A DNA stretch of 64,000 bases from Acidobacteriota bacterium (GCA_011526565.1 WYBL01000026.1:103928-167927); one strand, 5' to 3'. Positions 11,428 through 34,671 are shown, counted from the stretch's first letter. The notes: generated by a model not told the origin, from the sequence alone. Numbers and translations are program-made.

Positions 11428-11664
11428 ATGAGCGACATCAAGATCACCGTGCGCAACAACGGGCCGCTGCGGCTCGAGGGCAACATGACGATCGTCGACG
11501 CGGACGGCAACGCCTACGGGCTGGCCGGCCGGAGCGTCGTCTCGCTGTGTCGCTGCGGGCACTCGGCCAACAAGCCGTTCTGCGACGGCGCCCACAACCG
11601 GCAGGGCTTCGCCTCGGAGTGCAGGGCTTTCGAGCTGCCGCCGCCGGCGGCGCCGAAGGCCTGA
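11428..11664 (+). CDS. CDGSH-type iron-sulfur domain protein
   Basis: SLCRCGHSANKPFCDGAHNRQGF is the CDGSH motif. There is an ATG at 11428. A TACAAT hexamer lies 9 nt upstream. Confidence 0.8.
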   Translation: MSDIKITVRNNGPLRLEGNMTIVDADGNAYGLAGRSVVSLCRCGHSANKPFCDGAHNRQGFASECRAFELPPPAAPKA

Positions 11665-11722: not shown

Positions 11723-12169
11723 GTGGCGTTCGCCGGCCTTGCCGGCGACGCGTTCTCGCGCTGGTTCGGCTCGGCGCCTGCGGCCGAGCCGCGGGTGGCG
11801 ACGGTCCCCGCGCCGGGCCCGGGAGGCGCGGGCGCCGAAGCGAAGGAGTCGACGCCCGACGCCTCGCCGGCGCTCGCTTCCGTCGGCGACGCCCGGCGCG
11901 ATCGACAGATCGCCGGCGTCGTGGCGGCGATGGACCGCACGGGCCGGCCGCCCGAAGGCGTCGCCCAGGGCGGGAGGCGCGGGGGACAGCGCGGCCTGTT
12001 CGAGAACGCCGAGGGCCGGCTGCCGCGCCGGCCCCGCGGCTACTACGTCGAGAGCGACGTCTGGCCGCGCGGTCCCGGGGGCCGCGGCGCCGAGCGGCTG
12101 GTCTTCGGCCGCGAGGGCGAGGTGTACTACACCAGCGACCACTACGATTCGTTCACGAGGTTGCGCTGA
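11723..12169 (+). CDS. Barnase-family (microbial RNase N1/T1/Sa-like) ribonuclease, probably secreted. The start may be an upstream in-frame CTG at 11675, which would add an RR-containing signal peptide.
   Basis: The C-terminal half, FENAEGRLPRRPRGYYVESDVWPRGPGGRGAERLVFGREGEVYYTSDHYDSFTRLR, parallels barnase ...FSNREGKLP...RILYSSDWLIYKTTDHYQTFTKIR. Confidence 0.7.
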   Translation: MAFAGLAGDAFSRWFGSAPAAEPRVATVPAPGPGGAGAEAKESTPDASPALASVGDARRDRQIAGVVAAMDRTGRPPEGVAQGGRRGGQRGLFENAEGRLPRRPRGYYVESDVWPRGPGGRGAERLVFGREGEVYYTSDHYDSFTRLR

Positions 12170-12588
12170 TGGCGGACTGGGTCGACCTGCACGAGGACTG
12201 GCCGGACCTGCGCGGCACCTTCCTGCACGCGTGGCCCGAGGCGGAGGTCGGCGCGCTGCGGGCGCGGCTGGAAGCGCGGGGCTTCCGCACGCTCTACGTC
12301 GACACCCGCGAGGGGAGCTTCCTCGACGGCCTGGCGGCGGGCCTGGGACGCGCGCGCGGCCCCGGGCTCGACGCCGCCAACGACCTGCTGCTCGACTGGG
12401 CGGGGCTCGACCGCGCGCCGCGCGCGGTGGTGTGGAGCGGCGCCGACGCCCTGGCCGCCCGCGACGCCCAGGCCTGTCTCGACGCCCTCTGGCTGCTCGA
12501 GGCGCTGGTCCCCTCCGACTACGCCGAGCCGCAGTGCGAGGTGTTCGTCGCGGGCGCGGGGCCCGCCTACCTCCGCCGCAGCACGTAG
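12169..12588 (+). CDS. Barstar-like ribonuclease inhibitor (immunity protein), start-coupled to the RNase gene (TGATG)
   Basis: It lies immediately downstream of the barnase-like gene with a 1-nt stop/start overlap. It is acidic, with CLDALWLLEAL resembling the barstar DALWD segment. The size (139 aa) is larger than barstar. Confidence 0.55.
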   Translation: MADWVDLHEDWPDLRGTFLHAWPEAEVGALRARLEARGFRTLYVDTREGSFLDGLAAGLGRARGPGLDAANDLLLDWAGLDRAPRAVVWSGADALAARDAQACLDALWLLEALVPSDYAEPQCEVFVAGAGPAYLRRST

Positions 12589-13426: not shown

Positions 13427-14392
13427 TCAGCGGCGGCGGCCGGTGCGATGGTCGGCTGCGGCAGCGGAGCGGTACCACTCGACCGCCTGCCGCAACCCGT
13501 CCATGAAGTCGACCCGCGGTTCCCACCCGAGCTCCGCGCGGGCGCGACGGCCGTCGCCGCACATGCGCCAGATCTCGTTCGGGCGGTCAGGCCGTGCCCG
13601 GACCTCGAGCGGCAGGCTCGATCCGGTCAGGGCATGCACCTGTTGCGCCACCTCGAGAACGGTCCGCTCCCGGCCGCTCGCCAGGTTGACGGGCCCCCGC
13701 GGCACCTGCTCCGCCACGGCCGCGGCCAGGATGCCGCGAACGAGGTCGCTCACGTGGTTGAACTCGCGAGTCTGGCGGCCCGACGAGATCCGCAGCGGCT
13801 GGCCGGCCAGGCCCGCGAGGATCAGCTCGGGAATCACCGCCTTCGCGGACTGGCCGGGACCGTAGGCGTTGAAGGGGCGGAGGATCACCACCTCGGGCCC
13901 GCCGGTCCGGCCCTGGAAAAGACGGCAGTACTGCTCGCCGGCCAGCTTGCTGACGCCGTAGGGCGAGGCCGGCTCGGGGGCGAAGCCCTCCTCGAACGGC
14001 ACCCGCTCCAGCCGTCCGTAGACCTCGGAGGTCGAGACGTGCACGAAGCGGCCGACTTCGCGGCACTCGTCGAGCAGGTTGGCCGTGCCCTTCGCGTTGA
14101 CGTCGAAGCACTCCTCGACCTGGACGAAGCTCTGCCCGACGTGGTTGTAGGCCGCGAGGTGGAACACCACGTCGACGCGGCGGCGCAGCGCCTCGCGCAG
14201 GGCCCCGCGGTTGCGCAGGTCGGCCTCGAGGACCTCGAGGTCCGTCCACACCTCGCGCAGCCGCGGGTTCCGCAGCGGATCGCGATAGCGCACGAGCGCC
14301 CGCACCGCCGCTCCGCCCTCGAGCAGCGCCTTCGTCAGCCACGAGCCGATGAACCCGGAAGCCCCCGTGACCAGGACCGCTCGGCCCTTCAT
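13427..14392 (-). CDS. NAD-dependent sugar epimerase/dehydratase (extended SDR; UDP-glucose 4-epimerase / dTDP-glucose 4,6-dehydratase-like)
   Basis: The glycine motif is MKGRAVLVTGASGFIGSWL. The catalytic motif is PASPYGVSKLAGEQY (YxxxK). There is an ATGA overlap with the upstream nucleotidyltransferase. Confidence 0.85.
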   Translation of the reverse strand: MKGRAVLVTGASGFIGSWLTKALLEGGAAVRALVRYRDPLRNPRLREVWTDLEVLEADLRNRGALREALRRRVDVVFHLAAYNHVGQSFVQVEECFDVNAKGTANLLDECREVGRFVHVSTSEVYGRLERVPFEEGFAPEPASPYGVSKLAGEQYCRLFQGRTGGPEVVILRPFNAYGPGQSAKAVIPELILAGLAGQPLRISSGRQTREFNHVSDLVRGILAAAVAEQVPRGPVNLASGRERTVLEVAQQVHALTGSSLPLEVRARPDRPNEIWRMCGDGRRARAELGWEPRVDFMDGLRQAVEWYRSAAAADHRTGRRR

Positions 14393-15111
14393 CGCCGCCA
14401 CTCCCGCATCCCGGGCCGGAAGCGGGCGCGAGCCTCGATCAGTTCGTCTGCGGTGTTGAACGTGAGGTGGTGGCCCCGGTGGCGGTGGGCCGCCAGCCGG
14501 CCGGCCCGGGCCAGCGCCTGGAGCAGGGCGTCGAGGTCGGTTCCGGACCGCAGCCGGTCGAGCGCGGCCGGCTCGCACAGCACGAACCCCACGTTCATCC
14601 AGTGGGGCAGCAGCGGCTTCTCGCGAAAGCGGCATACCCGGCCGTCGGCGGCGACCTCGGCGATCCCACCGGCCGCCCGCATCGGGACCACGGTGATGGT
14701 GGCCAGCGCCGCGCGCGCGCGATGGCGGCGGGCGAGCGCCCGCAGGTCCACGTCCGCCAGGGTGTCGCCGTAGCAGACGAGGACGCGGCCCGGGCAGTGG
14801 CGACGCGCGGCGATCAGGCGGTCGCTCATCGCCGCGGCCCCCGAGTCGACCACGACGACCTGGCGCCCGCGGCGACGCTCGCGGGAGGAGAAGGACGCGA
14901 ACGCCGCCGCTCCGTTTCCGACGGCGATCACGAAGCGCGTGATCCCCTGTCGCGCGAGGTCGTCGAGGAGCCGGCCCAGGATCGGCCGCCCGGCGAGCGG
15001 CACCAGCGGCTTGGGCACGAAGGCCGAGAGCGGGCGCAGGCGCCGAGCCTCGCCGCCGCACAGGATCACTGCGGTCAGGGAGTCGATTCCGGTTTCGGAG
15101 GCCGCGGTCAT
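14389..15111 (-). CDS. Sugar-phosphate nucleotidyltransferase (NDP-sugar pyrophosphorylase family)
   Basis: AVILCGGEARRLRPLSAFVPKPLVPLAGRPIL is the canonical NTP-transferase N-terminal signature. Confidence 0.8.
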   Translation of the reverse strand: MTAASETGIDSLTAVILCGGEARRLRPLSAFVPKPLVPLAGRPILGRLLDDLARQGITRFVIAVGNGAAAFASFSSRERRRGRQVVVVDSGAAAMSDRLIAARRHCPGRVLVCYGDTLADVDLRALARRHRARAALATITVVPMRAAGGIAEVAADGRVCRFREKPLLPHWMNVGFVLCEPAALDRLRSGTDLDALLQALARAGRLAAHRHRGHHLTFNTADELIEARARFRPGMREWRR

Positions 15112-15143: not shown

Positions 15144-16250
15144 TTGGGCATGAGCGTGGCGCCGGCGGCCGGAGTCGTCGACTGCTGGCCACGGCCCGTC
15201 GAAGAACTCGTGCTCCAGGCCGGGCTCGGCGAAGGCGCGGCGCGAGACCGGGCCCTGTCGCAACTCGCCGGCCTCGACGTCACCGTCGAACGCCTGTCGC
15301 CCCAGGCGTTGCGCCTGCTCCCGCTCGCCCTGCAGGGAGCTCGCGCCGCCGGGGCTTCCGAGGCGCCGTGGATGGTGGCCGCGGAAGCCGTGTATGCCGG
15401 CTCCTGGCAGCGCCACGAACGCGCCTCGCCGCGCGTGGTCCGCGCCCTGCGAGCCCTCGCGGCCGCGGGCGTTCCCGTTCTCGTGCTGAAGGGCTGGGCG
15501 CTGGGCGACGTCTACGAAGACCCTGCGCTGCGGCCGGCCTCCGACCTCGACCTGCTGGTGCCCGCGGGCTCGTTCGAGGCCGCGGCCCGTGCGCTGGCCG
15601 GCGGAGGCTTTCGTCCACTCGCGGGCCCGGGCCCGACGGCGCACGCGCAGGCCTTCACCGCCCCCGACCTCGACGTCGACCTCCACCATCACGCGCTCGA
15701 GGAGTTCGTCGGCACCGCGCACGACGCCGCGCTGTGGGCCGACGCGGTCGCTTTCGACCTGTTCGGGCACGAGGCGCTACGGCTGGCCCCGATCGACCGG
15801 CTCCTGCTGACGTGCACCCACGGGCTGCGCTGGACGCCGGCCCCGGCTCTCCACTGGATCGCGGACGCGACGCTGGAGATCCGCACCCAGGGAGACGCGC
15901 TCGACTGGGATCGGCTCGCCGTGCGCGCCGAGGCCTTCGAACTCGCCTTGCCACTGCGGGCGGGCCTCGACTATCTCTCCGGGCTGGGCCTCGTGGTCGT
16001 GCCGCCGGAAGTGCTCCGCGCGCTCCACGCGGTCGGCGCACCGTGGGCCCGGCGGGTCGCGTTCGAAGCACGGCAGCGGGCCCCGGAGCGGCGCGGGCTG
16101 CTGCACGCCTGGGCGGTGCGCCACGAGTTCCGGAGACGGGCGCGGCGTGCGGGGTTCTCGCGCGCGCTGCACGCGGGGGGCTGGCGGCAGGACCTCGCCG
16201 GACTGTGGCGCGCGCTGCGCGTCTCGCTCGGGCTCAGCGCTCGCGGCTGA
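15144..16250 (+). CDS. NTP_transf_5-like (PF14907-type) uncharacterised nucleotidyltransferase. This is the family seen in kinase-containing lasso-peptide clusters. The probable true ATG is at 15150.
   Basis: ASDLDLLVPAGSFEAAARALAGGGF resembles the nucleotidyltransferase G[SG]xxDxD core. Size is about 365 aa. It is in genomic context with PqqD/HprK-like genes. Confidence 0.55.
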   Translation: MGMSVAPAAGVVDCWPRPVEELVLQAGLGEGAARDRALSQLAGLDVTVERLSPQALRLLPLALQGARAAGASEAPWMVAAEAVYAGSWQRHERASPRVVRALRALAAAGVPVLVLKGWALGDVYEDPALRPASDLDLLVPAGSFEAAARALAGGGFRPLAGPGPTAHAQAFTAPDLDVDLHHHALEEFVGTAHDAALWADAVAFDLFGHEALRLAPIDRLLLTCTHGLRWTPAPALHWIADATLEIRTQGDALDWDRLAVRAEAFELALPLRAGLDYLSGLGLVVVPPEVLRALHAVGAPWARRVAFEARQRAPERRGLLHAWAVRHEFRRRARRAGFSRALHAGGWRQDLAGLWRALRVSLGLSARG

Positions 16251-16965
16251 GCGGTCGTTGGCTTCCGCGCCCGCGGGCGACGGCGGCCCGCACGATCTCA
16301 CGCGCCGCGCGCGTTCGGCCGCGGACGATGCGGCTTCGAGAACGCTGCTGGAGCCGCCACACCATCGCGAGCAGACCCGGGACCCCGACGAACGTGGCCC
16401 GCTCACGCAGCCGCAGCATCAGGTCCCAGTCTTCCGACAACCGAAGGTGCGGAGCGTAACCGCCGACCGCCTTCAGCAAGCCGGTGCGGATCAGGCTCGC
16501 GGCATGGCAGATCCGGCCCGTCATCAGGTCCCACTGCGTGACCGGGGTCACGCCGATCAGCCGCGGCGGGCGCCGTCGGTCGGCGAACGTCTGGACGAGC
16601 AGGCCGCTCGCCGCGCCGGCGCCCGGGTTCGCGCGCAGCGCCTTCACCAGCGCAGACAGCGCTCCCGGCAGCAGCAGGTCGTCGGCGTCGCACGGGCTGC
16701 AGTAGGGTCCGCGCGCCAGCGCCAGCAGCCGGTTGCGGGTCGCCGCCGGAAACAGCCGCCGGCGATTGCGCAGCAGCCGCACCCGCGGATCGTGCCGCCA
16801 GGCGGCGAGCTTCGCCCAGGTGCCGTCCGTCGAGGCGTCGTCGCAGATCAGCAGCTCGAGGCGGACGCCGCGCTGCGACAACACGCAAACGATCTGCTCC
16901 TCGACCAGGTGCTCGGCGTTGCGGACGGCCATCAGCACGCTGACCTCGGGCCGGCGCTCGGTCAT
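16234..16965 (-). CDS. Family 2 glycosyltransferase
   Basis: VSVLMAVRNAEHLVEEQIVCVLSQ...LLICDDASTDGTW...SPCDADDLLLPGAL are the GT2 DxD motifs. ATGA overlap with upstream gene. Confidence 0.8.
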   Translation of the reverse strand: MTERRPEVSVLMAVRNAEHLVEEQIVCVLSQRGVRLELLICDDASTDGTWAKLAAWRHDPRVRLLRNRRRLFPAATRNRLLALARGPYCSPCDADDLLLPGALSALVKALRANPGAGAASGLLVQTFADRRRPPRLIGVTPVTQWDLMTGRICHAASLIRTGLLKAVGGYAPHLRLSEDWDLMLRLRERATFVGVPGLLAMVWRLQQRSRSRIVRGRTRAAREIVRAAVARGRGSQRPLSRER

Positions 16966-17666
16966 GGCCGGGTAGCTCGGCGTTGCCGTGCACGGCGGGC
17001 GAGGCTCAGGAAGGCGCGGGCCCAGTCCGGCCGCCGGCCACCGCGGGCCCGCCGCCGATAGACGTAGGTCAGCGCCCCCGGCACCAGCCGCAACTGCGTG
17101 ACCTCCGCGAGCTTCAACGTCAGGCTGACGCTGTCGAGTGGCGTGTCTTCGTCGTAGCCGCCGACGCCGAGCGCCAGCTCCCGGCGCAGCAGGGCGCCGG
17201 CGTGGTTGGCGGTGAACTCGAACAGGTCGGCGCCCGGGTCGTGCTGCCGGCCGCGCACCCACGGCGCGCGCTGCAGGCGCCTCCCGCGGCCCGTCTCCAG
17301 CATCAGGAAGCTGCCGTAGCAGTAACCGACCGCGGGATGGCGATCCAGGAAGCGGGCGAGGCGCGACACGCTGCCGGGCAGCAGCCAGTCGTCGGCGTCG
17401 CAAGGCATCACGTAGGCGCCGCGCGCCGCGCGCAGGAGCCGGTTGCGCACGGCGCCCACGGTGGTGCCGACCGCGTTGCGCAGCAGGCGCACGCGGGGGT
17501 CGCCGCGGAAGCGCTCCAGCTCGGCCCAGGTGCCGTCGGCCGAGCCGTTGTCGCAGGCGACCAGCTCGAAGCTCGCGTGGTCCTGGGCCAGCACGCAGCG
17601 CACCTGCTCCGCGACGAAGCGCTCGGCGTTGCGCGCCGGCATCAGCACCGAGACGCGCGGGCTCAA
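16962..17666 (-). CDS. Family 2 glycosyltransferase (second copy)
   Basis: VSVLMPARNAERFVAEQVRCVLAQ...LVACDNGSADGTW...MPCDADDWLLPGSV. The TTG start overlaps the PqqD-like stop (cgaTTGAgccc). Confidence 0.75.
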   Translation of the reverse strand: MSPRVSVLMPARNAERFVAEQVRCVLAQDHASFELVACDNGSADGTWAELERFRGDPRVRLLRNAVGTTVGAVRNRLLRAARGAYVMPCDADDWLLPGSVSRLARFLDRHPAVGYCYGSFLMLETGRGRRLQRAPWVRGRQHDPGADLFEFTANHAGALLRRELALGVGGYDEDTPLDSVSLTLKLAEVTQLRLVPGALTYVYRRRARGGRRPDWARAFLSLARRARQRRATRP

Positions 17667-18073
17667 TCGAGCTGGCCGAGGTACTTCAGGTTCCCGCGCT
17701 TCTCGAGGCGGGGCGCCCGATACGGCTGCGCGGCCGCGGCCCGCGCGCGCCGCGGCGCCGGAGCCGGATCGGCGAGAGTCCCCGGCTCGGCCAGCAGGCC
17801 CGCGGAGCGGAGCTGGCGGACGAACGCGTCGAAGTCCTTCGCCACCCGGGCCTCGGTGCCGCCGAGGGCCGCCGCCACCGCGGTGCAGATCGCCTCGCGC
17901 GTGGTGCGGCCGTCGAGCCGCTTCCAGATCGCGAGCGCCGCGCCGGCGAGTCCGTAGTACTCGCCGTTGGCCAGATCGAGCAGCATGCCTTCCTGCGGTC
18001 CGAACTCCTTGAACGGCACGTCGTCCCGGCGGCAGGGGAGCGCCGCGGGTGTTCGATTGCGATCTCGCGTCAT
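17663..18073 (-). CDS. PqqD-family peptide-binding chaperone (RiPP recognition element-like; lasso B1-like)
   Basis: VPFKEFGPQEGMLLDLANGEYYGLAGAALAIWKRLDGRTTREAICTAVAAALGGTEARVAKDFDAFVRQLRSAGLL follows the PqqD pattern. It has a Pro/Ala-rich tail. ATG at 18073. Confidence 0.7.
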   Translation of the reverse strand: MTRDRNRTPAALPCRRDDVPFKEFGPQEGMLLDLANGEYYGLAGAALAIWKRLDGRTTREAICTAVAAALGGTEARVAKDFDAFVRQLRSAGLLAEPGTLADPAPAPRRARAAAAQPYRAPRLEKRGNLKYLGQLD

Positions 18074-18096
18074 CCGCGGGAACGTAGCAGACGGGA

Positions 18097-18843
18097 ATGG
18101 GACCGGCAAAGAAGGTGGGGCCACGGCTGTTCGTCTTCGGGGGCTGCGACCCGCTCTCCGCGGGGGCGGCCGCTGCGCTCTCGCGGGCGATGCTGCGCCG
18201 TGCCTGCGCGGGTCCGCGCCCGCCCCGGCTCGGCCTGCTGGTGGCGGACGGCGTGGAGTCGGCGGACCTGGCCGGGTGGACGGCTCGCGCGCGCGGCTCC
18301 GGGCTGACGCTCGCCATCGCCGGCTTCGAGGACGTCCTGGCGGCCGCAGTCGCGGGCGACCTGGAGCTCGTGCACGTGCCGGCAGGCCACACCGCGCACC
18401 TGCTGCACCGCCTGGCCCCGTGGTCCGCGAGCCTGCGCGCTCGATGGGAGCGCGGGCTCGTGCTCTCGGGGCAGAGCGGCGGCGGGGCGTGTTTCGCGTT
18501 CCGGCTTTGGAGCGCGTCGCGTTTCGGGACGCCGGAATGGATCGACGGCCTTGGCTTCCTGCCCGTGGCACTGGGCGCGCACTTCGATCAGCCGATGTGG
18601 GCGACGCCCGAGTTGCCGGTGCCGGGGTTCGACGGGGACGTGCTGGCGCTCGATCACCACGCCGTGCTCGACTGGACGCCGGCGCGCGTCGCGTGCGTCG
18701 CCGCCCAGCCTGGCGCTCGAGCCTGGCGCCTGCGGGCGGGGCGGCAGCCGACGCCACTGCCAGCGCGCGATCTCAGCCGCATCCTCGCGTGGTGCACGCG
18801 CGGACGCCGCGCGCTCGGCCGGCTCGTCGGCCGCGCCCTGTAG
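18097..18843 (+). CDS. Peptidase S51-family protein (dipeptidase E/cyanophycinase-like; class I glutamine amidotransferase-like fold)
   Basis: Three blocks align with PepE. LFVFGGCDPLSAGAAAAL aligns with IIVGGGNTFQLL. LVLSGQSGGGACFAF aligns with YIGWSAGANLAC (Ser nucleophile). GLGFLPVALGAHFDQ aligns with LDLFPLQINPHFTN (His). The gene is divergent from PqqD with only a 24-bp gap. Confidence 0.6.
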   Translation: MGPAKKVGPRLFVFGGCDPLSAGAAAALSRAMLRRACAGPRPPRLGLLVADGVESADLAGWTARARGSGLTLAIAGFEDVLAAAVAGDLELVHVPAGHTAHLLHRLAPWSASLRARWERGLVLSGQSGGGACFAFRLWSASRFGTPEWIDGLGFLPVALGAHFDQPMWATPELPVPGFDGDVLALDHHAVLDWTPARVACVAAQPGARAWRLRAGRQPTPLPARDLSRILAWCTRGRRALGRLVGRAL

Positions 18844-18854
18844 AATCCGCGCGC

Positions 18855-19799
18855 GTGGAGACCTGGTACGACGTCTTCGGGCGGCGCTTCGTGGTCCGCT
18901 CTCAGCGTCGAGCCGTGCTCGAGCGGCTGCGCGGCAACGCCGCCTGGAGCCGGCTCGAGGCGCCCCCCGCGCCGAAGGCGGACGCCGAGATCGAGGTGCT
19001 GTTCCCGGCGGAGCCGAACCCGCTCCGCGAGGTGCAGTCCTTCGGCAACGAGACCTTCTTCCTCCACGCCAGCCGCCACAAGCTGATCACGGGACACTGC
19101 GCGGGCCGCCCCTGGCAGGTCCACGTGCAGAGCTTCGTCGCGGATCCCTTCCGCGTGGCTCACGCGATGGTGGTGCCGACGCTGCAGGACCTGGTCGAGC
19201 GCCGCGGGCTCTCGTCGCTGCACGCGGCCGCGGTCGCGTCCCGCGGCCGTGGCGTCCTGCTGTGCGGGGACACCGGCAGCGGCAAGAGCACGACCGCGCT
19301 CGCGCTCGTCGCCCAGGGGTTCGACTTCCTGACCGACAACGACGCGTACCTCGAGCTCGCGCGGGGTGCGGTCCGGGTGCGCAGCCGGGGCGCGAGGGTC
19401 GGCCTGCGGCCGGCAGCGGCCCGGCTGTTGCCCGGCGCGCCGGCGCTCGCTCGCTTCCCGCTGCGCGGGCGCGGCGCGCAGCGCAAGCGACAGGTGGACC
19501 CGGGCGCGATGTGGCCGCGCGCCTGCAGGAGCGCGGCGACCGTTCGGCTGCTGCTGTTCCCCCGCGTCGGCCGCGGCGGCCGCAGCCGGCTGCGGCCACT
19601 GTCGCCGACAGAGGCGCTGTCGAGGCTGCTCGACTCGTACCCGCTCGGTGGCAGCGTGCGAGGCGTGATCCCCGACGGCTGGGCCCAGCAACGGCGCTTC
19701 GAGCGCCTGTCCCTGCTCGTCGCCACGGCACCCGCGTACGCGCTGGACCTCGCTCCCGAGCTGGCGACGCTGGGCGAGCAGGTGCGAGAGCTGCTGTGA
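18855..19799 (+). CDS. HPr kinase C-terminal-domain-like P-loop kinase (HprK-related kinase). GTG start.
   Basis: LHAAAVASRGRGVLLCGDTGSGKSTTALALVAQGFDFLTDND matches HprK [25 protein letters not shown]. Confidence 0.7.
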   Translation: METWYDVFGRRFVVRSQRRAVLERLRGNAAWSRLEAPPAPKADAEIEVLFPAEPNPLREVQSFGNETFFLHASRHKLITGHCAGRPWQVHVQSFVADPFRVAHAMVVPTLQDLVERRGLSSLHAAAVASRGRGVLLCGDTGSGKSTTALALVAQGFDFLTDNDAYLELARGAVRVRSRGARVGLRPAAARLLPGAPALARFPLRGRGAQRKRQVDPGAMWPRACRSAATVRLLLFPRVGRGGRSRLRPLSPTEALSRLLDSYPLGGSVRGVIPDGWAQQRRFERLSLLVATAPAYALDLAPELATLGEQVRELL

Positions 19800-20884
19800 A
19801 GCGCCGCGGGCTGCGGCTCGCCTTCCAGCTCCATCCCCGGCTGTTCGGCGGCCAGGAGCGCTTCCTGCTGCGGCTGCTGGGCGCCCTGCGCGAACGGGGC
19901 CACGCCTGCTTCGTCGTTTCGGCGCCCGCGGGGCGCGTGCTGCGCGAGTTCGAGCGGGCCGGGTTCGAGTCGCTGCGGCTGGCCGGCCGCGACTTCGGCC
20001 GCGACCACGAACGCCTGGCTTCCTGGTTGCGCCAGCAGCGGGCGGACGTGGCGCAGACCAACCTCTACGCGCCGCTGGCGGGGCTGGCTGCCGCCGCTGC
20101 GGGCGTGCCCCACGTCTGGAGGGTCGGTGGCCATCCCGACGTGGCCCTCGCCGACATGGCACCGGCTCCCCGGCGGGGCCTGCTGCGGCTGCTCGCCTCG
20201 CTCTCCGCCGTGGTCGTGTGCAACTCGCGCTTCGTCGCCGGCGGGTTGCGCAACGGCGGTGTGCGCCGGCCTCGGGTGATTCCCAACGGCGCTCCGATCC
20301 CCCCTGCCGCGAGCCCGCGAGCCGCGGGCGACACCGTGCGGTTCGCGCTCGCCGCCCACTTCTATCCGGTGAAGCGCCACGCCGACTTCGTCCGCGCCGC
20401 CGCGTTCGTCGCGCGCCGCGTGCCCGCCCGCTTCCGGATCTACGGCTCGAGCTTCGGCCAGCCGGAGATGCGGCGTCACGAGCGCGCGGTCCGCGACCTG
20501 GTCCGGCGCCTGGGATTGCAGCGCCAGTTCGACTTCCGCTGCGCTCGCGCCGAGGGCGCGATCGCCGCGTGGAGCGACGTGGCCGTGCTGCCTTCGGTCG
20601 GCGAGAGCTGCAGCAACGCGGTGCTGGAGGCGATGGCCGCCGGCAGCGCCGTGGTGGCCGCTCGCTCCGGGGGCAACCCCGAGCTGGTGGTCCACGGGCG
20701 CAGCGGCCGGCTTCATCCACCGGGCGACTGGCGCGGGTTGGCGGCCGAGATGCTCGTCCTTGCCGCCGACCCGCGCCAGCGCGAGAAGCTCGGTCGTGCG
20801 GCTGCCCGGCGAGTGGTCGCGCGCTTCTCGATCGAGCGCTGCGCGTCGGCCTACGAGGAGCTCTACGGCGCGTTGGCCGGCTGA
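19796..20884 (+). CDS. Family 4 (GT-B, group 1) glycosyltransferase. The GTG start overlaps the upstream stop.
   Basis: The C-terminal GT4 signature is PSVGESCSNAVLEAMAAGSAVVAARSGGNPELVVHGRSGRL (E-x7-E region). Confidence 0.8.
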   Translation: MKRRGLRLAFQLHPRLFGGQERFLLRLLGALRERGHACFVVSAPAGRVLREFERAGFESLRLAGRDFGRDHERLASWLRQQRADVAQTNLYAPLAGLAAAAAGVPHVWRVGGHPDVALADMAPAPRRGLLRLLASLSAVVVCNSRFVAGGLRNGGVRRPRVIPNGAPIPPAASPRAAGDTVRFALAAHFYPVKRHADFVRAAAFVARRVPARFRIYGSSFGQPEMRRHERAVRDLVRRLGLQRQFDFRCARAEGAIAAWSDVAVLPSVGESCSNAVLEAMAAGSAVVAARSGGNPELVVHGRSGRLHPPGDWRGLAAEMLVLAADPRQREKLGRAAARRVVARFSIERCASAYEELYGALAG

Positions 20885-22526
20885 GCCAGCTCGCGCTCGA
20901 GCGCCTCCGCGACGACCTTCGCCGCCAGTGCCTGGCCCGCCTCGTTGAAGTGCCCGTCCCACGGCAGGTAGAGGTTGCGCGCCCTGGCGGCGTGGCGGAA
21001 CGCCTCGCTTGGATCGACCCAGGTGATGCGCTGCTCCTCGCAGAACGCGCGCAGCCGGTTCCGCTCCCGATCCAGGTCGAAGTCGGACGCGGCGAGGTTC
21101 CAGCGCCGTGCGAGCACCGACCAGTCCTGGGCCTGCACGGCGTGCCGCTGGGGCAGGTAGACGAGGACGAAGCGGGCGCCGCGTTCCTGCGCGGTCCGGT
21201 TCATCGCCGCGAGCAGCGGCAGCGAGACGGCCCACGAGTCGGCCGCCGGTGGCAGTTCCTCCCGATACGCGAAACCGAGGTTGGGAAACCCGTCGAACAG
21301 CAGCTTGCGGGGTCCCCGCTGGACGAGCGCCCCGCCGCTCACCGTCAGTTCGCCGCGGAACTCGTCGCTTCGCTCCGGGCCCGGCGGCGGCCGCAGCGCC
21401 CGCAGGGAGCGGAGGGCCAGCACGGCCTGCAGCGCCGGATGCGGCGCCCGGGGCGGAGCGGCGGTCGCGGCGATCGACGGATCGCCGTCGCGCGGATACG
21501 TCCACTGGCGCCACTGGCCGAACCGCACCCGGGCGGCCGGCCGTGCGACCCTGCGCAGCCGTCCGTCGGCGTCGAGGCGGATCGCACCCTGCGCCCCGCA
21601 GCCGAGCCAGCCCTGCAGGAGGTCGTTCCCCGAGAGGCCGAACAGCACGATGTCCGGTCGCAATGCGGCGCCGTGACGCTGCAGGTAGAGGGCGCCGTAG
21701 CAGGGATCCGAGACCTCGGCGTTCCAGACCCGCACCGGGCGCCGCAGGGCGGCGACGAGGCGGCGCTGGACCAGCGGACCCAGGAACGCGTGCTGGTCGA
21801 CGCCGAAGCCGATCCCGAACGAGTCGCCGAGGTTCAGCACGGTCAGGCCGCCCGGCAACGGCGGGGTGTCCGGCTCCTCGTCGTTGCGCAGCCCGATCCG
21901 GTTCGTCGCGAACCAGACGCGGCGTTCCGCATCCAGGCCCGAGCGCGCGATCCAGGTTCGTACCGACGGCCGCAGGCGCCCGCCGGGGCCAATCAGCGGT
22001 TCCTGCAGCGGGAAGAGGAACGCGAAGGTCCTGCGGTCGCCCCATCGCGGCACACCCTCGGACCGCTCCGAGCCGAGGCGCGCTGCGAACTCGGGGGCGA
22101 GCAACCCGCTCGCGGCGAGGGCCAGGCTGGCCAGCACGAGCAGTCCCTCGCCGCTGCGGCGCGACACGGCCCACGCCAGCGTCGCGAGATTCGCCGTCCA
22201 GAGCCAGGCGAGCAACCCGGCCACCTGGGAAGGGACCGCGATCGCCCACGCAGCCGCTCCCGCCACGGCGACCGCGCGGATCGCCACCCACCGGCGCGGC
22301 CGGTCCGCGACGGCCGCGGCGAGGGCGGGGAAGCGCCACGCGGCGAGCGCCTGGCCGCACGCGAGCGCCGCCAGCGGCAGCATCACGCCCACCGCATAGC
22401 GCCAGGACCATCCGAGCAGCACAGGGTCGTCACTGGCGTGCCGGCCGGCCAGGGCCAGCGAGACGGCCCCCAGCAACGCAACCGCACCTGCGGTGGCCGC
22501 CGCCAGCGCCGTCGGCACTCGCGGGC

Positions 22527-22530
<4 letters not shown>
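20863..22530 (-). CDS. Membrane-anchored SGNH/GDSL hydrolase-family protein (AlgJ/PatB-like acyl-esterase/acetyltransferase candidate)
   Basis: The N-terminal ~200 aa is polytopic. Block I is GLTVLNLGDSFGIGFG and block V is YLPWDGHFNEAG. The TTG start overlaps the ABC stop (tcTTGAgccc). Confidence 0.7.
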
Positions 22531-24163
<1,633 letters not shown>

Positions 24164-24167
<4 letters not shown>

Positions 24168-25930
24168 GCGGCGTGCCCCGTGGCGGGGCCGTCGACGTGG
24201 CGGCGATGCCAGGCCTCGATCACGAACAGGGCCCAGAGCCGATAGCCGTGCAGGGCCCGCAGCCGCGCATGTTCGTCCCACAGCCGCTGCACGTAACGCT
24301 GGCGGAACAGGCCGCGCTGCCGGCACCGGGGCGAAAAGAGGAGGTCCGCCACCTGGTCGCGGAACGGTCCCGGCTGCCAGAGCCAGGCATCGATCGGGAG
24401 CGCGAACCCGCGCTTGCGGCGCGTGAGCACGGGCGGCGGCAACAGCGCCGCAAAAGCGCGCCGCAGCAGCTTCTTGCCTGAGTGCCGGTCCACGCGCCAG
24501 GCGACCGGAAGGCCGGTGGCGTGGTCGGCGAAGGGGCGGGACAACGCGGGCACGCGGATCTCCAGCCCGGCCAGCATCCCGGCCCGGTCGCACTTGTGCA
24601 GCAGGTCCGCGGGCAGATAGCGGCGCAGGTCGTCGCTGAGCCGACGCTCGCGGCGGCTGGCCAACCGCGCGTGTGGAGGCAGGGACGCCGCCGGCTGCCA
24701 CGCGCCGAGCCGGCGGCGGAAGGCGGCTGACGGCAGGCCGCCCAGCGGAGTTCCCGCGCCGGGCCACGCGGCCAGTGCGTCGGCGGCGAGATCGAGACGG
24801 CGGTGCCAGAAATTGCCGCCATGCAACTCGTCGAGGCCTTCACCTCCCAGCACGGCCTTGACGTGGCCGCGCGCGAAGCGGGCCAGCAGGTGGGTCGGCA
24901 CCACCGAGGCGTCCGCGAACGGCTCGTCGAGGTCCTCGAAGAGCGCGGGGAGCGCGCGGGCGGCGGTCGTGGCGTCGATCGAGATCTCGTGGTGGGTGGT
25001 GCGGAAGCGCTGCGCGACCAGCCGCGCGAACGGCCCCTCGTCGAATCCCGGCGCGGCGATGCGGGCGGAGAAGGTGGGCAATCCGGGGCAGTGGCGGCTG
25101 GCGAGGGCCACGACGGCGCTGGAGTCGAGCCCACCGCTGAGGAACACGCCGACGGGGCCGTCGGCGCGCAAGCAGCGTTCGACCGAGGCGTCCAGGCGCC
25201 GGACCAGCGTGCGCGCCGCGTCGGCGGGCCGCCCGGCCCGCGCGGGGGTTCGCGCGGGCGGAGGCTCGTGGTACCGGCGCAGGGTGCTCGCTCCGTCCGC
25301 CTCGACGACCAGGACGTGTGCGGCCGGGAGGCGGCGCACGTCTCGCCAGATCGACCGCGTGTCGTCGATCGCGAGGCGCGTCAGGCAGTCCGCCAGCGCC
25401 CGCGGATCGACGCGTCGATCGAAGCCGGGAGCCGCCGCCAGCGCCCCGGGCTCGGACGCGAAGCGCAGCCGCCGCGCGTCGCGGACGTAGTAGAGCGGCT
25501 TGATCCCGAACGGGTCGCGGGCCAGCACCAGCCGCCGGCGCCGCGCATCCCACAGCGCGAAGGCGAACATCCCGCCGATCCGCTCGACGAAGCGGAGGGG
25601 ATCGTCCTCGTAGAGGTGCAGGATCACCTCGCAATCGCTGCCCGTGCGCAACGAGTGGCCGCGCCCGGCGAGCCGCACCCCCTGCTCGCGGGCGTCGTCC
25701 ACGTGGCCGTTGCAGACGAGCCACAGGCTCGCGTCCTCGTTGCTCAGCGGCTGGGCTCCCCCCGCGGCATCGATCACGGCGAGACGCCGATGGCCGAGAC
25801 CCAGCGTCCCGTCGAAGTGGAAGCCCGCGCCGTCGGGGCCGCGGTGGGCCAGTCGACGCGTCATCTCGCGCACGGCCCGCCGATCGACCGGCGCCCCGTC
25901 GAACCGCCACTCGCCCGCGATCCCGCACAT
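24164..25930 (-). CDS. Asparagine synthetase (glutamine-hydrolysing) family protein with intact Cys1 glutaminase domain. It is a candidate sugar/peptide amidotransferase or lasso-cyclase-like enzyme.
   Basis: MCGIAGEW is an Ntn Cys1 start. The PP-loop is VGVFLSGGLDSSAVVAL. The AsnB C-terminal domain is present. ATG at 25930. Confidence 0.85.
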
Positions 25931-26805: not shown

Positions 26806-29148
26806 TCAGGCGGTCGGCGGCGCTTCCTTTCCGGAGGCCGTCGCGCCGCGCCACAGGAAGTGGGCGAGGGCGGGCAGCAGCAGGATCGCACCGAGCATGT
26901 TGAACAGGAACAGGAAGGTCAGCAGGATGCCCATGTCGGCCTGGAACTTGAGCGGCGAGAAGATCCAGGTGGCGACGCCCATCGCCAGCGTCAGGCCGGT
27001 GAAGATCACGCCGTTGCCGGTCGTCGTGAGCGCGTCGTGGTAGGCCTGCTTCAGCGGCTCGCCGGCCTCCAGCAGCCCGGCCATGCGCCCGAACAGGTAG
27101 ATCCCGTAGTCGACGCCGATGCCCACGCCGAGCGCGGCCACCGGCAGCGTCGAGACCTTGAGTCCGATCTCGAGCACCGCCATCAGCGCGTAGGCGAGCA
27201 GCGAGACGAGCGCGAGCGGCAGCACGATGCAGACCGCGATGCGCCAGGAGCGGAAGCTCAGCAGGCACAGGGCGATCACCGCGGCGAACACGCCGCCGAG
27301 GATCGGGAACTGGGCCGCGGCCACCTCCTCGTTGGTCGCCGCCATCACCCCCAGGTTGCCGGTCGCCAGCCGGAACTTCACGTCGGGGTTGCCGTGGGAG
27401 GCCTGGTAGGCCTTCACCTCGGCGACGATGCGGTCGATCGTCTGCGCCTTGTGATCTGTGGTGAAGATCAGCACCGGCATCACGCTGCACTCGCCGTTGA
27501 GCAGGCCGGTCGAGGTGTCGACGTAGGTGACGGCCTGGGCCAGCAGCGAGGTGTCGCGCGGCAGCACCCGCCACTCCAGGCTGCCCTCGTTCCAGCCCGC
27601 GGTCAGCAGCTTGGCGACCGTCGGCAGCGCGACGACCGACTGCACGCCGGGCACGTTGCGCATCTCCCACTCGAAGCGGTCGATCACGCTCATCACCGCG
27701 TGGTCGGTGCAGGCCTGGGCCGGCACCTCGGTGATCACCGTCAGCAGGTCGACGCCGATCGAGAAGTGGCGGGTGACCACGTCGGTGTCGATGTTGTAGC
27801 GCGAGTCGGCGTGCAGCTCGGGCACGCCGGCGTGCAGGTCGCCGATCTGCACCTTGTTCGACGTCGGGTAGCCCCAGGCCAGCAGCAGCAGGGCGATGCC
27901 CGCCACGACCAGCGCCCGCCGCCGCTCGGTCAGCCGCGACAGCGCGTGCCACAGCGGGTCGACGTGGGCGTGACGGCGCTTGAGCTGGAGCAGGTAGATC
28001 TCGTCGTGGTGGACCCACGACAGCAGCAGCGGGACCAGCAGCATGTTGATGATCAGGATCATCGCCACGCCGAGCGAGGCCGTGATCGCCATCTCGCGGA
28101 TCATCTGGATGTCGATCAGCAGGATGGTCACGAAGCCGATGCAGTCGGTCAGCAGCGCGACGCTGCCCGGCACCAGCAGCTTGCGGAACGCCGCGCGGGC
28201 CGCCGGTTCTCCCGTGTGGCCCAGCCAGAACTCGGCGCGGTGCACGCTGATCATCTGCACGCCGTGGCTGACGCCCACGGCGAACACCAGGAACGGGACC
28301 AGGATCGACATCGGGTCGATCCCGTAGCCGAGCAGCGGCAGCAGGCCCAGCGTCCACACCACGGCGGTCACGGAGGAGACCAGCGGGATCACGGTCAGCG
28401 CGATCGACTGCGAGTAGACGAACACGAACACCGCGGTCACGAAGAAGGCGATCGCGAAGAACAGCACGACCCGCCGCGCCCCGGACGCGATGTCGCCGAT
28501 CACCTTGGCGAAGCCCAGGATGTGGTAGTCGAAGGCGACGCCGACGCCGTTCGTCGAGTGCTTCAGGCGGATCGCCTCGAGCTGGTCGGCGACGTGGATG
28601 TAGTCGAGCCGGGCGCCGGTGCGCGGGTCGATCTCGAGCAGCTCGGCGCTGACCAGGGCCGCGGTGAAGTCGTTGGCGACCAGGCGGCCGACGTAGCCCG
28701 ACTTGAGCACGTTGCGCCGTACCTTGGCCAGGCCCTCGGCCGTCGGCTCGAAGTCGGCCGGCACCACGTTGCCGCCCGAGATGCCGTCCTCGACGACCTC
28801 CGTGAAGCGCACGTTGGGGGTGAACAGCGAGGAGACCCGCGCGCGGTCGACGCCGGGAATGAAGAACACGTCGTCGGTGACGGACTTGAGCGTCGCGAAG
28901 AACTGGGGCGTGAAGATGTCGCCCTCGCGCACCTTGAGCGCGATCAGCACGCGGTTGGCGCCGCCGAACTCGTCGCGGTACTGCATGTACGTTCGCATGT
29001 ACTCGTGCTGCAGCGGCAGCAGCTTGGCGAAGCCCGCGTCGACGCGCAGCCGCGAGGCGCTGGCGCCGAGCAGCACGGTGACCACGGCAAACAGCACGAG
29101 CACCAGCCGGCGGTGACCGAAGAGGAAGTTCTCGAGCCGGGCCTTCAT
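26806..29148 (-). CDS. MMPL/RND-superfamily exporter (SSD-containing; HpnN/MmpL-like)
   Basis: It has twelve-TM architecture with two large periplasmic loops. The conserved GxxxD/VSHGVQM-type regions are present. The RND-like C-terminal half is FPILGGVFAAVIALCLL... ATG at 29148. Confidence 0.85.
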   Translation of the reverse strand: MKARLENFLFGHRRLVLVLFAVVTVLLGASASRLRVDAGFAKLLPLQHEYMRTYMQYRDEFGGANRVLIALKVREGDIFTPQFFATLKSVTDDVFFIPGVDRARVSSLFTPNVRFTEVVEDGISGGNVVPADFEPTAEGLAKVRRNVLKSGYVGRLVANDFTAALVSAELLEIDPRTGARLDYIHVADQLEAIRLKHSTNGVGVAFDYHILGFAKVIGDIASGARRVVLFFAIAFFVTAVFVFVYSQSIALTVIPLVSSVTAVVWTLGLLPLLGYGIDPMSILVPFLVFAVGVSHGVQMISVHRAEFWLGHTGEPAARAAFRKLLVPGSVALLTDCIGFVTILLIDIQMIREMAITASLGVAMILIINMLLVPLLLSWVHHDEIYLLQLKRRHAHVDPLWHALSRLTERRRALVVAGIALLLLAWGYPTSNKVQIGDLHAGVPELHADSRYNIDTDVVTRHFSIGVDLLTVITEVPAQACTDHAVMSVIDRFEWEMRNVPGVQSVVALPTVAKLLTAGWNEGSLEWRVLPRDTSLLAQAVTYVDTSTGLLNGECSVMPVLIFTTDHKAQTIDRIVAEVKAYQASHGNPDVKFRLATGNLGVMAATNEEVAAAQFPILGGVFAAVIALCLLSFRSWRIAVCIVLPLALVSLLAYALMAVLEIGLKVSTLPVAALGVGIGVDYGIYLFGRMAGLLEAGEPLKQAYHDALTTTGNGVIFTGLTLAMGVATWIFSPLKFQADMGILLTFLFLFNMLGAILLLPALAHFLWRGATASGKEAPPTA

Positions 29149-30101
29149 CGCGTCCCCTCCGCCGCGGCCACGTCGGCCGCCGCCAGCTTGCGCACGCCGA
29201 ACTCGCCGCATTGCGCCAGACCGCCGTCAGGGGTCGGGGCCATCGCCTGGACCCCGAGGCGGTCTGGCCGCGCGTGCAGGGTGAAGGTGCGCCCGCCGTC
29301 GCTGCTGACGAGGACGACGCCAGCCAGTCCGGCCATCACGAGGCGGCCGTCCTTCAGCCGGGCCGCGCTGGTCAGCATGGTGTCGACGCCCGTCTCGAGC
29401 GGCGTCCAGGAGCGGCCGCCGTCGGGCGAACTGAGCGCGTGGCCACGCAGCCCGAAGAGCAGCAGCGCGTCGCCGTCGAGCGGCAGGGTGCCGAACAGCG
29501 AGCCCTCGTAGGGGACTGCCAGCTCGCGCCAGGTGGCGCCCTGGTCGTCGGAGCGCAGCAGCAGGCCTCCTTCGCCGGCGAGGTACAGGGCGCCGGAGGC
29601 GGCGCGCGAGACGTGGTGGTAGTGGGCGTCCGACTCGGTGATCGGCCGCGGCGCCCAGGTCGCGCCGCCGTCGGCCGACTCCAGGAAGCTGCCGTAGGCG
29701 CCGACCGCGAAGGCCCGCGCCGGGTCGACGAAGAAGACGTCGAAGAGCGGGGCGTCGGCCTCGGCGTCGACGTGGACCCGCTCCCACTTCAGGCCGCCGT
29801 CGGTCGTGCGCAGGATCGTCGAGTCGTGGCCGACGGCGAGTCCCAGCTTCGCGTCGGCGAAGGCGACGCCCGTGAGCAGCGCGGTGGTGGGAACCACGAC
29901 CTGACGCCAGTGTGCGCCCTGGTCGTCGGAGAGCAGCACGTGCCCGCGCTCGCCGACGGCCACCAGCCGCGAGCCCGCGGCCTCGACGTCGAGCAGCAGC
30001 GACCTGTCGGCGAGCGGCCGGAGGACGGAGGACTCGTCTGCCATGGCGGAGCTGGCGAGCGCGAGGGTGAGGGCGGCGGCGAGGCGGGCGGCCTTCTCCA
30101 T
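29145..30101 (-). CDS. Ycf48/BNR-repeat beta-propeller protein (photosystem II assembly factor-like) commonly paired with MMPL exporters
   Basis: It has a signal peptide. There are repeated SxDxGxTW BNR motifs (SDDQGAHW, TTDGGLKW, SADGGATW, SDDQGATW, SPDGGRSW, SSDGGRTF). Confidence 0.8.
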   Translation of the reverse strand: MEKAARLAAALTLALASSAMADESSVLRPLADRSLLLDVEAAGSRLVAVGERGHVLLSDDQGAHWRQVVVPTTALLTGVAFADAKLGLAVGHDSTILRTTDGGLKWERVHVDAEADAPLFDVFFVDPARAFAVGAYGSFLESADGGATWAPRPITESDAHYHHVSRAASGALYLAGEGGLLLRSDDQGATWRELAVPYEGSLFGTLPLDGDALLLFGLRGHALSSPDGGRSWTPLETGVDTMLTSAARLKDGRLVMAGLAGVVLVSSDGGRTFTLHARPDRLGVQAMAPTPDGGLAQCGEFGVRKLAAADVAAAEGTR

Positions 30102-30182
30102 GGAGCCTCCGGCGAGGGCGATGTGGCGGGGAGGGAGGGGCGGCCGGGCCCGCGGCGGGGCCCGGCCGGAACGGAGGAACGG

Positions 30183-31544: not shown

Positions 31545-31558
31545 CTGTCCTTTCGCAC

Positions 31559-34661: not shown

Positions 34662-34671
34662 GGGAGGCACC

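Follow-up and report, generated by a model that had tools for sequence, protein, structure and literature searches.

The 64,000-nucleotide stretch of an Acidobacteriota bacterium analysed here (GCA_011526565.1, WYBL01000026.1:103928-167927; hereafter the window) holds a gene for a serine peptidase of family S51, set between the genes for a PqqD-like protein with a RiPP (a ribosomally made, post-translationally altered peptide) recognition element (RRE) and for an HprK-like kinase. From sequence comparison and from analogy with characterised enzymes, the chances seem to us evenly balanced that this enzyme serves, as its dedicated peptidase, a conserved peptide-modification cassette that has no cyclase and is derived from lasso peptide machinery. 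Because the window has a GC content of ~74%, genes were called by third-position GC and then checked by homology, with Pfam and NCBIfam as the profile sources for protein family scores. The PqqD, S51 and kinase calls are backed by both third-position GC and homologues. The genes on which the argument turns are, in coordinate order (GT, glycosyltransferase family):

15144-16250, plus strand: PF14907 (NTP_transf_5) nucleotidyltransferase-fold protein, 118 bits; between two GT2 genes in all cassette loci
16234-16965, minus strand: GT2 glycosyltransferase 'b', 243 aa (Pfam, NCBIfam)
16962-17666, minus strand: GT2 glycosyltransferase 'a', ~234 aa; 4-nt overlap of its start with the PqqD stop codon
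17663-18073, minus strand: PqqD-like RRE protein, 136 aa; PF05402, 58 bits
18074-18096, no strand: divergent spacer of 23 bp between the PqqD and S51 start codons, from the coordinates
18097-18843, plus strand: S51-family serine peptidase, 248 aa, on motifs, family profile, fold matches and homologues
18855-19799, plus strand: HprK-like (ScmC-like) P-loop kinase, 314 aa; PF07475 E 1.7e-6, TIGR04352 47.5 bits
19796-20884, plus strand: GT4 glycosyltransferase; start overlaps the kinase stop by 4 nt; kept 3' of the kinase gene in every cassette locus
20863-22476, minus strand: SGNH/AlgX-like membrane-anchored protein, putative acyl-transferase or esterase (Pfam; N-terminal hydrophobic segments)
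24164-25930, minus strand: glutamine-hydrolysing asparagine synthase, AsnB type, beginning MCGIAG; optional cassette member

A first-pass annotation of this DNA had reported an open reading frame with the three S51 blocks, followed directly by the kinase gene, and both statements hold. The blocks are FVFGG (aa 12-16), GQSGGGA (aa 125-131) and LPVALGAHFD (aa 155-164), and the kinase, whose Walker A motif reads GDTGSGKST, starts 11 nt past the S51 stop codon. The candidate triad codons lie at nt 18475-18477 (Ser127), 18580-18582 (His162) and 18652-18654 (Asp186); GTG at 18115 is an alternative start. Comparison with the family profile PF03575 gave a divided answer: the window protein reaches 20.9 bits (E 3e-4), below the gathering score of 23.9, whereas its orthologues score 26.8 bits (P0017), 42 bits (L004) and 60-97 bits (L088, L092-L094, P0093, P0127). 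A single-sequence phmmer search of the open reading frame against the Protein Data Bank (PDB) returned nothing useful; a profile of its seven closest relatives matches only S51 structures there. Through the family profile Ser127, in GQSGGGA, aligns with PepE Ser120 (GWSAGAN) and CphB Ser132 (GTSAGAA), and His162, in AHFD, with PepE His157 (NPHF) and CphB His174. The serine and histidine of the Ser-His-Glu triad that had been anticipated are thus alignable. The third, acidic residue is Glu192 in PepE and Glu201 in CphB, and the column aligned to the latter is not acidic. Ser127, Gly129 and His162 never vary across 11 cassette-type proteins, and Asp186, which is Glu in P0006, hardly does.

A broader profile of cassette-type proteins finds cyanophycinases as its best PDB matches, over the full length (E 6e-10), and lies nearer to them than to PepE-like chains. 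When the AlphaFold model of the window protein is compared by Foldseek, the 13 best PDB matches are dipeptidase E, PepE and cyanophycinases (probability 1.00, template modelling (TM) score ~0.5-0.6). Like PepE and the cyanophycinase CphB (MEROPS S51), the protein combines the fold, a Gly-x-Ser-x-Gly nucleophile and the aligned histidine. It differs from them in having AGHT for GGN in the window clade, a Glu201 column that is not acidic, no retained cyanophycin-binding DQHF/Arg pocket, an extra C-terminal basic helix and an entirely different genomic context. The Arg-rich helix (aa 227-247 in the window protein) lies beyond the S51 domain in all cassette-type S51 proteins and is absent from PepE; its function might be to dock the RRE or the kinase. 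The window clade of S51 proteins changes faster than its neighbours (56% identity against 65-88%), and its nearest outgroup, P0093 and P0127, consists of the closest relatives of the cassette S51 of locus L094, a placement that fits orthology combined with fast evolution. Judged by its sequence relationships and its modelled fold, the product of 18097-18843 is a divergent S51 peptidase, orthologous to the cassette enzyme of other lineages.

The head-to-head arrangement with the PqqD gene had been described as leaving a gap of 24 bp. The orientation is as described; the intergenic spacer has 23 bases, 24 being the difference between the two start coordinates, and use of the GTG at 18115 would widen it to 41 bases, close to the ~40 bp that had been given. 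A scan of the 23-bp spacer for promoters and terminators gave no match, to sigma-70-like sites either, and is uninformative, as 0.0 sites were expected by chance. Beyond Vicinamibacteria, S51 is the first gene of its operon, with a gap of 285-520 bp on its 5' side (L092, L093, L094). Since the tight pairing is confined to Vicinamibacteria, we regard the short spacer as a local rearrangement and not as a feature of the system, which sets aside the weight originally placed on it.

What persists across lineages is the cassette itself. It consists of S51, the HprK-like kinase, GT4, in some loci AsnB, then GT2, NTP_transf_5, GT2 and PqqD/RRE, plus the AlgX-like protein and a NAD-binding protein, and is seen in at least five divergent lineages with GC contents of 53-75%. 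Linkage was read from tblastn and gene tables for L001, L004, L082, L083, L084, L088, L092, L093 and L094. A word-indexed search among 5.8 billion sequences returned no more than seven relatives of the S51 protein, and an exhaustive S51 profile search gave 2,608 matches, with three close clusters inside a large S51 superfamily. An S51 motif scan of species genomes yielded mostly Gaiellaceae S51 genes without any cluster neighbours; the syntenic loci that it found were from Vicinamibacteria only and had the same housekeeping flanks, with the syntenic contig L001 flanked by a TonB-dependent receptor. The possibility that the S51-PqqD linkage is the accident of a single lineage was considered and was overturned by the distant cassettes that came from a scan for the PqqD C-terminus and from a kinase search.

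The PqqD scan led to distant loci that include L088 (GC 53%, PqqD 35% identical), where the order is epimerase-like, PqqD, GT2, NTP_transf_5, GT2, AsnB, GT4, HprK-like, S51. The kinase profile search separated an orthologue group at 331 bits or more from every other HprK-like protein, at 116 bits or less. The longest contigs of this group (L092, L093 and L094; GC 63-67%) read S51, HprK-like, GT4, AsnB where present, GT2, NTP_transf_5, GT2, PqqD, with an epimerase-like gene in L092. The AlgX-like gene is kept in L092 and L093 and also in L080 and L083. S51 always lies directly 5' of the kinase gene, overlapping it by 4-19 nt or standing 11 nt apart, and an S51 hidden Markov model (HMM) scores 264-394 bits in every cassette locus that is long enough. 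These matches argue that S51 is a core, kinase-coupled member of the cassette. The search for co-occurrence of S51 and PqqD thus bears out the pairing: S51 is a conserved partner of PqqD/RRE and HprK-like genes in at least five lineages and no chance neighbour. At 1218-2968 locus L094 also holds another NTP_transf_5 gene paired with another PqqD-like gene, the two being unrelated to the cassette pair. The PqqD-like protein encoded there has 147 aa, and its C-terminal extension is hydrophobic and rich in Ala and Ser where the cassette protein has the GNLKYLGQLD tail described below.

In split-B lasso pathways the peptidase that works with the RRE protein B1 is the transglutaminase-like cysteine protease B2 (PF13471), and the first-pass annotation had placed S51 where B2 would be while finding no B2 protein. 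Both points are upheld. Pfam scans of all called genes between 0.7 and 47 kb of the window found no PF13471/B2 gene, and a six-frame search with a B2 HMM found none, either in the whole window or in the cassette loci. P0182 and P0187, the kinases of the nearest outgroup, belong to four-gene modules of PqqD, B2, HprK-like and NTP_transf_5 genes (L095 and L097) that have neither a cyclase nor glycan genes. There a true lasso B2 (NF033537, 58 and 53 bits, cutoff 33) stands directly 5' of the HprK-like gene. The B2 HMM matches the sister loci only and the S51 HMM the cassette loci only, with no S51 match in L095-L098, and the two were never found together. As far as gene order can tell, the slot directly 5' of the kinase gene is held by B2 in one branch and by S51 in the other.

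A third variant is seen in L098 (1961-4347), where the PqqD gene (149 aa, with another tail) is divergent from a 253-aa GT-like gene that overlaps the HprK-like kinase gene; 3' of PqqD lie a 69-aa GT2-fragment open reading frame and a 407-aa open reading frame with GT2-like and NTP_transf_5-like regions. The 253-aa gene was considered as a hidden S51 and rejected, as it encodes a GT-like protein and the L098 PqqD tail differs. Its position indicates that the slot 5' of the kinase is variable, holding B2, S51 or GT.

The sister modules also carry small precursor genes, unannotated and found by a scan for the lasso leader motif. The one in L097 (4932-5033, plus strand), beside PqqD, reads MDNKRTYEKPEMQRLGLLRRLTK followed by the core FSFSPPPHWG, and that in L095 (12387-12464, minus strand) reads MNKKTYSKPQLKRLGRLRNRTH followed by FSF; both have Thr at -2. 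They suggest, on sequence features, that systems derived from lasso machinery form a family whose products are phospho- or glyco-peptides of two to ten residues, with no macrolactam. The L095/L097 modules, which hold the kinases closest to that of the cassette, share with it a peptidase gene directly 5' of the kinase gene, PF14907, a lasso-type leader, a very short core and the lack of a cyclase. They are unlike it in having the B2 cysteine protease, a separate small precursor gene, Ser-containing cores and no glycosyltransferases. They resemble the NCBIfam HPr-rel-A system, with kinases at ~55 bits, far below the TIGR04352 cutoff of 200. The window proteins fail both HPr-rel-A models, the kinase at 47.5 bits (TIGR04352, cutoff 200) and PqqD at 20.9 bits (TIGR04353, cutoff 35).

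In the cassette itself the leader motif lies within the PqqD protein, which consists of an RRE domain to about residue 94, a variable linker and a conserved C-terminal tail:

17666-17722, minus strand: leader-like tail, Y118-R-A-P-R-L-E-K-R-G-N-L-K-Y-L-G-Q-L-D136; stop codon at 17663-17665

The consensus of this tail is Y-x-x-P-x-[LIV]-x-x-[RK]-G-N-L-K-[YF]-L-G-Q-L-D-COOH, with P0014 (YRPARL) as the exception at its start, and R126-D136 is invariant (with [RK] and [YF] as in the consensus) across orthologues down to 35% identity. It fits the lasso leader pattern YxxPxLx3Gx5(T)x in the canonical register, Tyr118 falling at -17, Gly127 at -8 and Gly133 at -2; in lasso leaders YxxPxL spans positions -17 to -12 (PMC10368454). 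Only Leu135-Asp136 lie beyond the leader register, as what would be the core. Run in six frames, a regular expression for the motif gave one C-terminal match per cassette locus, namely the tail, at a constant distance of 19 residues from the stop, and the scan found no separate precursor open reading frame with the leader motif in these loci; the background is one match in 80,440 residues of unrelated proteins. The AlphaFold model of the PqqD protein (predicted local distance difference test (pLDDT) 79.6) has as its best PDB matches lasso B1 proteins, namely the TbiB1-leader complexes 5v1u and 5v1v (TM 0.82, 28-29% identity) and 6jx3; against the NCBIfam lasso PqqD models the protein scores 33 bits (cutoff 70). 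In this model residues 122-128 of the tail form a beta-strand (pLDDT ~87) after a poorly ordered linker, which, as a prediction, resembles the way leaders bind RREs. By its sequence, then, the RRE protein has a leader-like peptide of its own joined to its C-terminus, with two residues in the place of a core. The three-residue core in a sister module makes a core of two residues credible.

These observations bear directly on the lasso framing under which the locus was first described. A canonical lasso pathway, with S51 replacing B2 as leader peptidase and the asparagine synthase homologue acting as cyclase, would account for the B1-like RRE, the lasso-type leader motif, the synthase homologue and an ABC (ATP-binding cassette) exporter, and yet we consider it extremely improbable. 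A lasso core has Asp or Glu at position 7-9; with Leu-Asp alone after the leader, a macrolactam ring of seven to nine members is impossible. The synthase, whose gene lies ~5 kb from S51, passes the AsnB model (TIGR01536, 371 bits, cutoff 267), fails the lasso-cyclase model (NF033535, 205 bits, cutoff 525) and, starting MCGIAG, keeps the Cys2 glutaminase nucleophile, so that its candidacy as a lasso cyclase was rejected. Nor could it be retained as a core cassette member: its gene is present in L088 and L094 and absent from L092 and L093. With no cyclase, no separate precursor gene and a two-residue core, the locus is, on its gene content, no lasso system, yet one derived from lasso machinery.

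Among the closest known parallels are those split-B lasso pathways (paeninodin, pseudomycoidin and Bsf of Bradymonas) that include an HPr-kinase homologue together with a nucleotidyltransferase. Common to them and the cassette are a B1-like RRE, a leader whose YxxPxLx3G pattern has the same register, a kinase of the HprK-like kind, a protein with the nucleotidyltransferase fold and, beside the RRE and kinase genes, a gene for a peptidase. The cassette departs from them in having no cyclase and no B2, a leader fused to the RRE, a two-residue Leu-Asp core without Ser, and three glycosyltransferases and the AlgX-like protein as core members. In those pathways modification takes place at or near the C-terminus of the peptide, and B1 serves both kinase and protease (PMC8498205, PMC10368454). 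HPr-kinase homologues phosphorylate the C-terminal Ser of the precursor, and this phosphate receives hexoses through the nucleotidyltransferase PsmN (PMC8498205); B1 speeds the HprK-like kinase BsfK and also assists B2 (PMC10368454).

By analogy, the tail of the cassette PqqD protein would bind the RRE, either that of the same molecule (in cis) or that of another copy (in trans), and so offer its C-terminus to the other enzymes of the cassette. Decoration of the C-terminal Leu-Asp would then fall to the HprK-like kinase, the PF14907 protein and the three glycosyltransferases, a step that we propose because homologous kinase/nucleotidyltransferase pairs phosphorylate and phospho-glycosylate lasso precursors. 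The two GT2 enzymes and GT4 would extend a glycan, and in the loci that have AsnB this enzyme may amidate the side chain of the Asp. S51 would do the job of B2, cutting at or near the leader-core junction or at the bond after Asp136, and its cut would release or edit a small modified dipeptide-derived product, whose export would fall to the ABC transporter where that is present, in Vicinamibacteria. We infer cleavage of an RRE-presented peptide from the position of the gene and from family chemistry. S51 enzymes cut Asp-X bonds or set free dipeptides that contain Asp; PepE and CphB are Asp-specific dipeptidases or dipeptide-releasing enzymes, with cyanophycinase releasing beta-Asp-Arg dipeptides (PMC10206079).

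A bolder form of this proposal, which we put forward only tentatively and with more doubt than conviction, is that the cassette represents a new RiPP-like class. One scaffold would combine RRE, leader and two-residue core, and Leu-Asp would be modified, cut off by S51 and exported as a glyco-dipeptide. On this tentative scheme Leu-Asp might undergo phosphorylation or activation, as well as nucleotidylation or phospho-glycosylation, before or while the three glycosyltransferases extend it; AsnB might optionally amidate it and the AlgX-like protein acylate it, and S51 might be a non-orthologous displacement of B2. The logic could resemble that of mycofactocin, with the sister modules of B1, B2, kinase and nucleotidyltransferase genes and their FSF cores as the separate-precursor version. 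In mycofactocin biosynthesis (MftA-F), RRE-dependent modification of a C-terminal dipeptide is followed by release through a dedicated peptidase and then by GT2 glycosylation. For GT2 'b', the NCBIfam model that ranks second is that of MftF, the glycosyltransferase of mycofactocin (TIGR03965), with a score of 54 bits that lies below the cutoff. Mycofactocin nevertheless serves as a works-like analogy only: the cassette has no radical-SAM enzyme, uses another peptidase family and has its precursor fused to the RRE, and homology to mycofactocin proteins is limited to the generic RRE and GT2 folds.

Several points weigh against assigning S51 the role of a dedicated processing peptidase. Characterised S51 substrates have a free N-terminal Asp (PepE, MccG) or are beta-Asp-Arg (cyanophycinase), and we know of no S51 enzyme that cuts an internal Gln-Leu bond or sets free an X-Asp dipeptide. 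The Leu-Asp core offers no hydroxyl to a Ser-type kinase, and the partner strand of the tail (beta3) is assumed in the modelled pairing. Alternatively, the tail could serve docking or autoinhibition, and the true substrate could be the product of a gene elsewhere. As to the enzyme, the CphB Glu201 column is occupied by H, D, N or Q, with Asp186 one column earlier; the S51 model has a mean pLDDT of 62, with residues 127-169, the active-site half, below 50; and the window protein is the most diverged copy, below the PF03575 gathering score, with AGHT replacing the S51-typical GGN across the whole Vicinamibacteria clade.

The low profile score and the AGHT replacement, together with the faster evolution of the clade relative to its neighbours and the S51 clade II proteins recorded as lacking peptidase activity (PMC9239234), would also fit an inactive pseudo-peptidase that has been kept in the kinase complex for scaffolding or for binding. 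We think this improbable, as Ser127, His162, Gly129 and Asp186 are kept in all clade members and the orthologues of other lineages have fully canonical motifs.

A different catalytic role is suggested by MccG of microcin-C-like clusters, which groups with Bacillus subtilis PepE in S51 clade V and is the sole characterised S51 enzyme from a RiPP cluster: it cleaves an aspartyl-carboxamide-nucleotide and spares the intact peptide (PMC9239234). By this analogy the cassette S51 would be an enzyme of self-protection or editing that hydrolyses an Asp-linked phospho-, nucleotide or sugar adduct of a degraded or mis-made product. The product would thereby be detoxified or recycled, and leader removal would be needless or left to a housekeeping protease. 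In keeping with such a role, which we hold to be a minority possibility and on balance unlikely, the tail ends in Asp, the cassette has a nucleotidyltransferase-fold protein and a kinase, known S51 enzymes favour a free N-terminal Asp, and MccG acts on a C-terminal Asp-derived phospho-nucleotide adduct (PMC9239234). MccG is, however, an immunity enzyme that acts on a processed toxic Asp-nucleotide and not on a peptide, unlike the role proposed for the cassette S51, and the MccB-type (E1-like) chemistry that accompanies it is absent here. Counter to an MccG-like function, S51 is universal in the cassette, is the first operon gene and is translationally coupled to the kinase; the sister modules hold the maturation protease B2 in the same slot, and no other peptidase is conserved in the cassette.

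The sugar-related genes raise a further alternative. Three more genes of the window belong here:

13427-14401, minus strand: NAD-dependent epimerase/dehydratase, accessory sugar-nucleotide gene (Pfam)
14389-15111, minus strand: sugar-1-phosphate nucleotidyltransferase, accessory sugar-nucleotide gene (Pfam)
22527-24167, minus strand: ABC exporter, fused transmembrane domain and ATPase; present only in the Vicinamibacteria version of the cassette

The locus might be an ordinary glycan or exopolysaccharide locus, in which PqqD, the HprK-like protein and S51 form a regulatory or accessory module, the tail is a docking or autoinhibitory motif, and S51 does something unrelated, such as peptide salvage. 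Three glycosyltransferases, the sugar-nucleotide enzymes, the AlgX/SGNH-like protein and the ABC exporter would all be at home there, as would AsnB, whose best match is a PEP-CTERM amidotransferase model. We nonetheless regard this as quite unlikely. Pfam scans of the window genes found no initiating phosphoglycosyltransferase, Wzx/Wzy or Wza/Wzc, and a glycan locus would leave the B1-like RRE and the tail with its full lasso leader pattern in register to be accounted for. The sister modules have B2 and mini-precursors with no glycan genes, and the coupling of S51 to the kinase outlasts rearrangements of gene order between lineages. The sugar-1-phosphate nucleotidyltransferase gene at 14389-15111 is present in the window, L003 and L084 and is missing from L001 and L004, which, to judge from these loci, is a recent insertion or deletion within the cluster.

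Around the cassette the window carries genes of other kinds. On one side, a PF00545 guanyl-specific ribonuclease gene followed by a barstar-like inhibitor gene (11723-12588) forms a barnase/barstar-type pair, and a CDGSH iron-sulfur protein gene at ~11428-11664 comes before the pair; all three are kept in the syntenic loci. Further out, at 1849-4020, a 723-aa open reading frame has a strong coding signal and no Pfam match. On the other side, four minus-strand genes at 26806-33457 (MMPL/RND-like transporter, BNR/YCF48-like, DUF1329 and DUF1302) directly adjoin the cassette. They are followed at 33768-37104 by the gene for a multihaem cytochrome (paired CXXCH, NrfB/MtrC-like) beside that for an MtrB/PioB-type outer-membrane porin, which on sequence grounds make up, in this genome from the Vicinamibacteria, a module like those for extracellular electron transfer. 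After the cytochrome and porin genes comes a two-component system, at 37253-39378.

In the literature that could be searched, we found nothing on the tail sequence, on S51 enzymes with lasso peptides or on RRE-precursor fusions, and MccG was the only S51 enzyme that we found described in a RiPP cluster. If the proposal that S51 is the dedicated peptidase of this cassette is correct, the PqqD-like protein would be, to our knowledge, the first RRE protein that covalently bears its own leader and core. Lasso recognition machinery would then have been reused without a cyclase for products of two or three residues, with an S51 serine peptidase in the role of the B2 cysteine protease and a new class of S51 substrates. 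A PqqD protein ending in GNLK[YF]LGQLD beside S51 and HprK-like genes would provide a signature for genome mining, and the cassette would offer a compact, self-contained system in which to study RRE-guided modification of a C-terminus.

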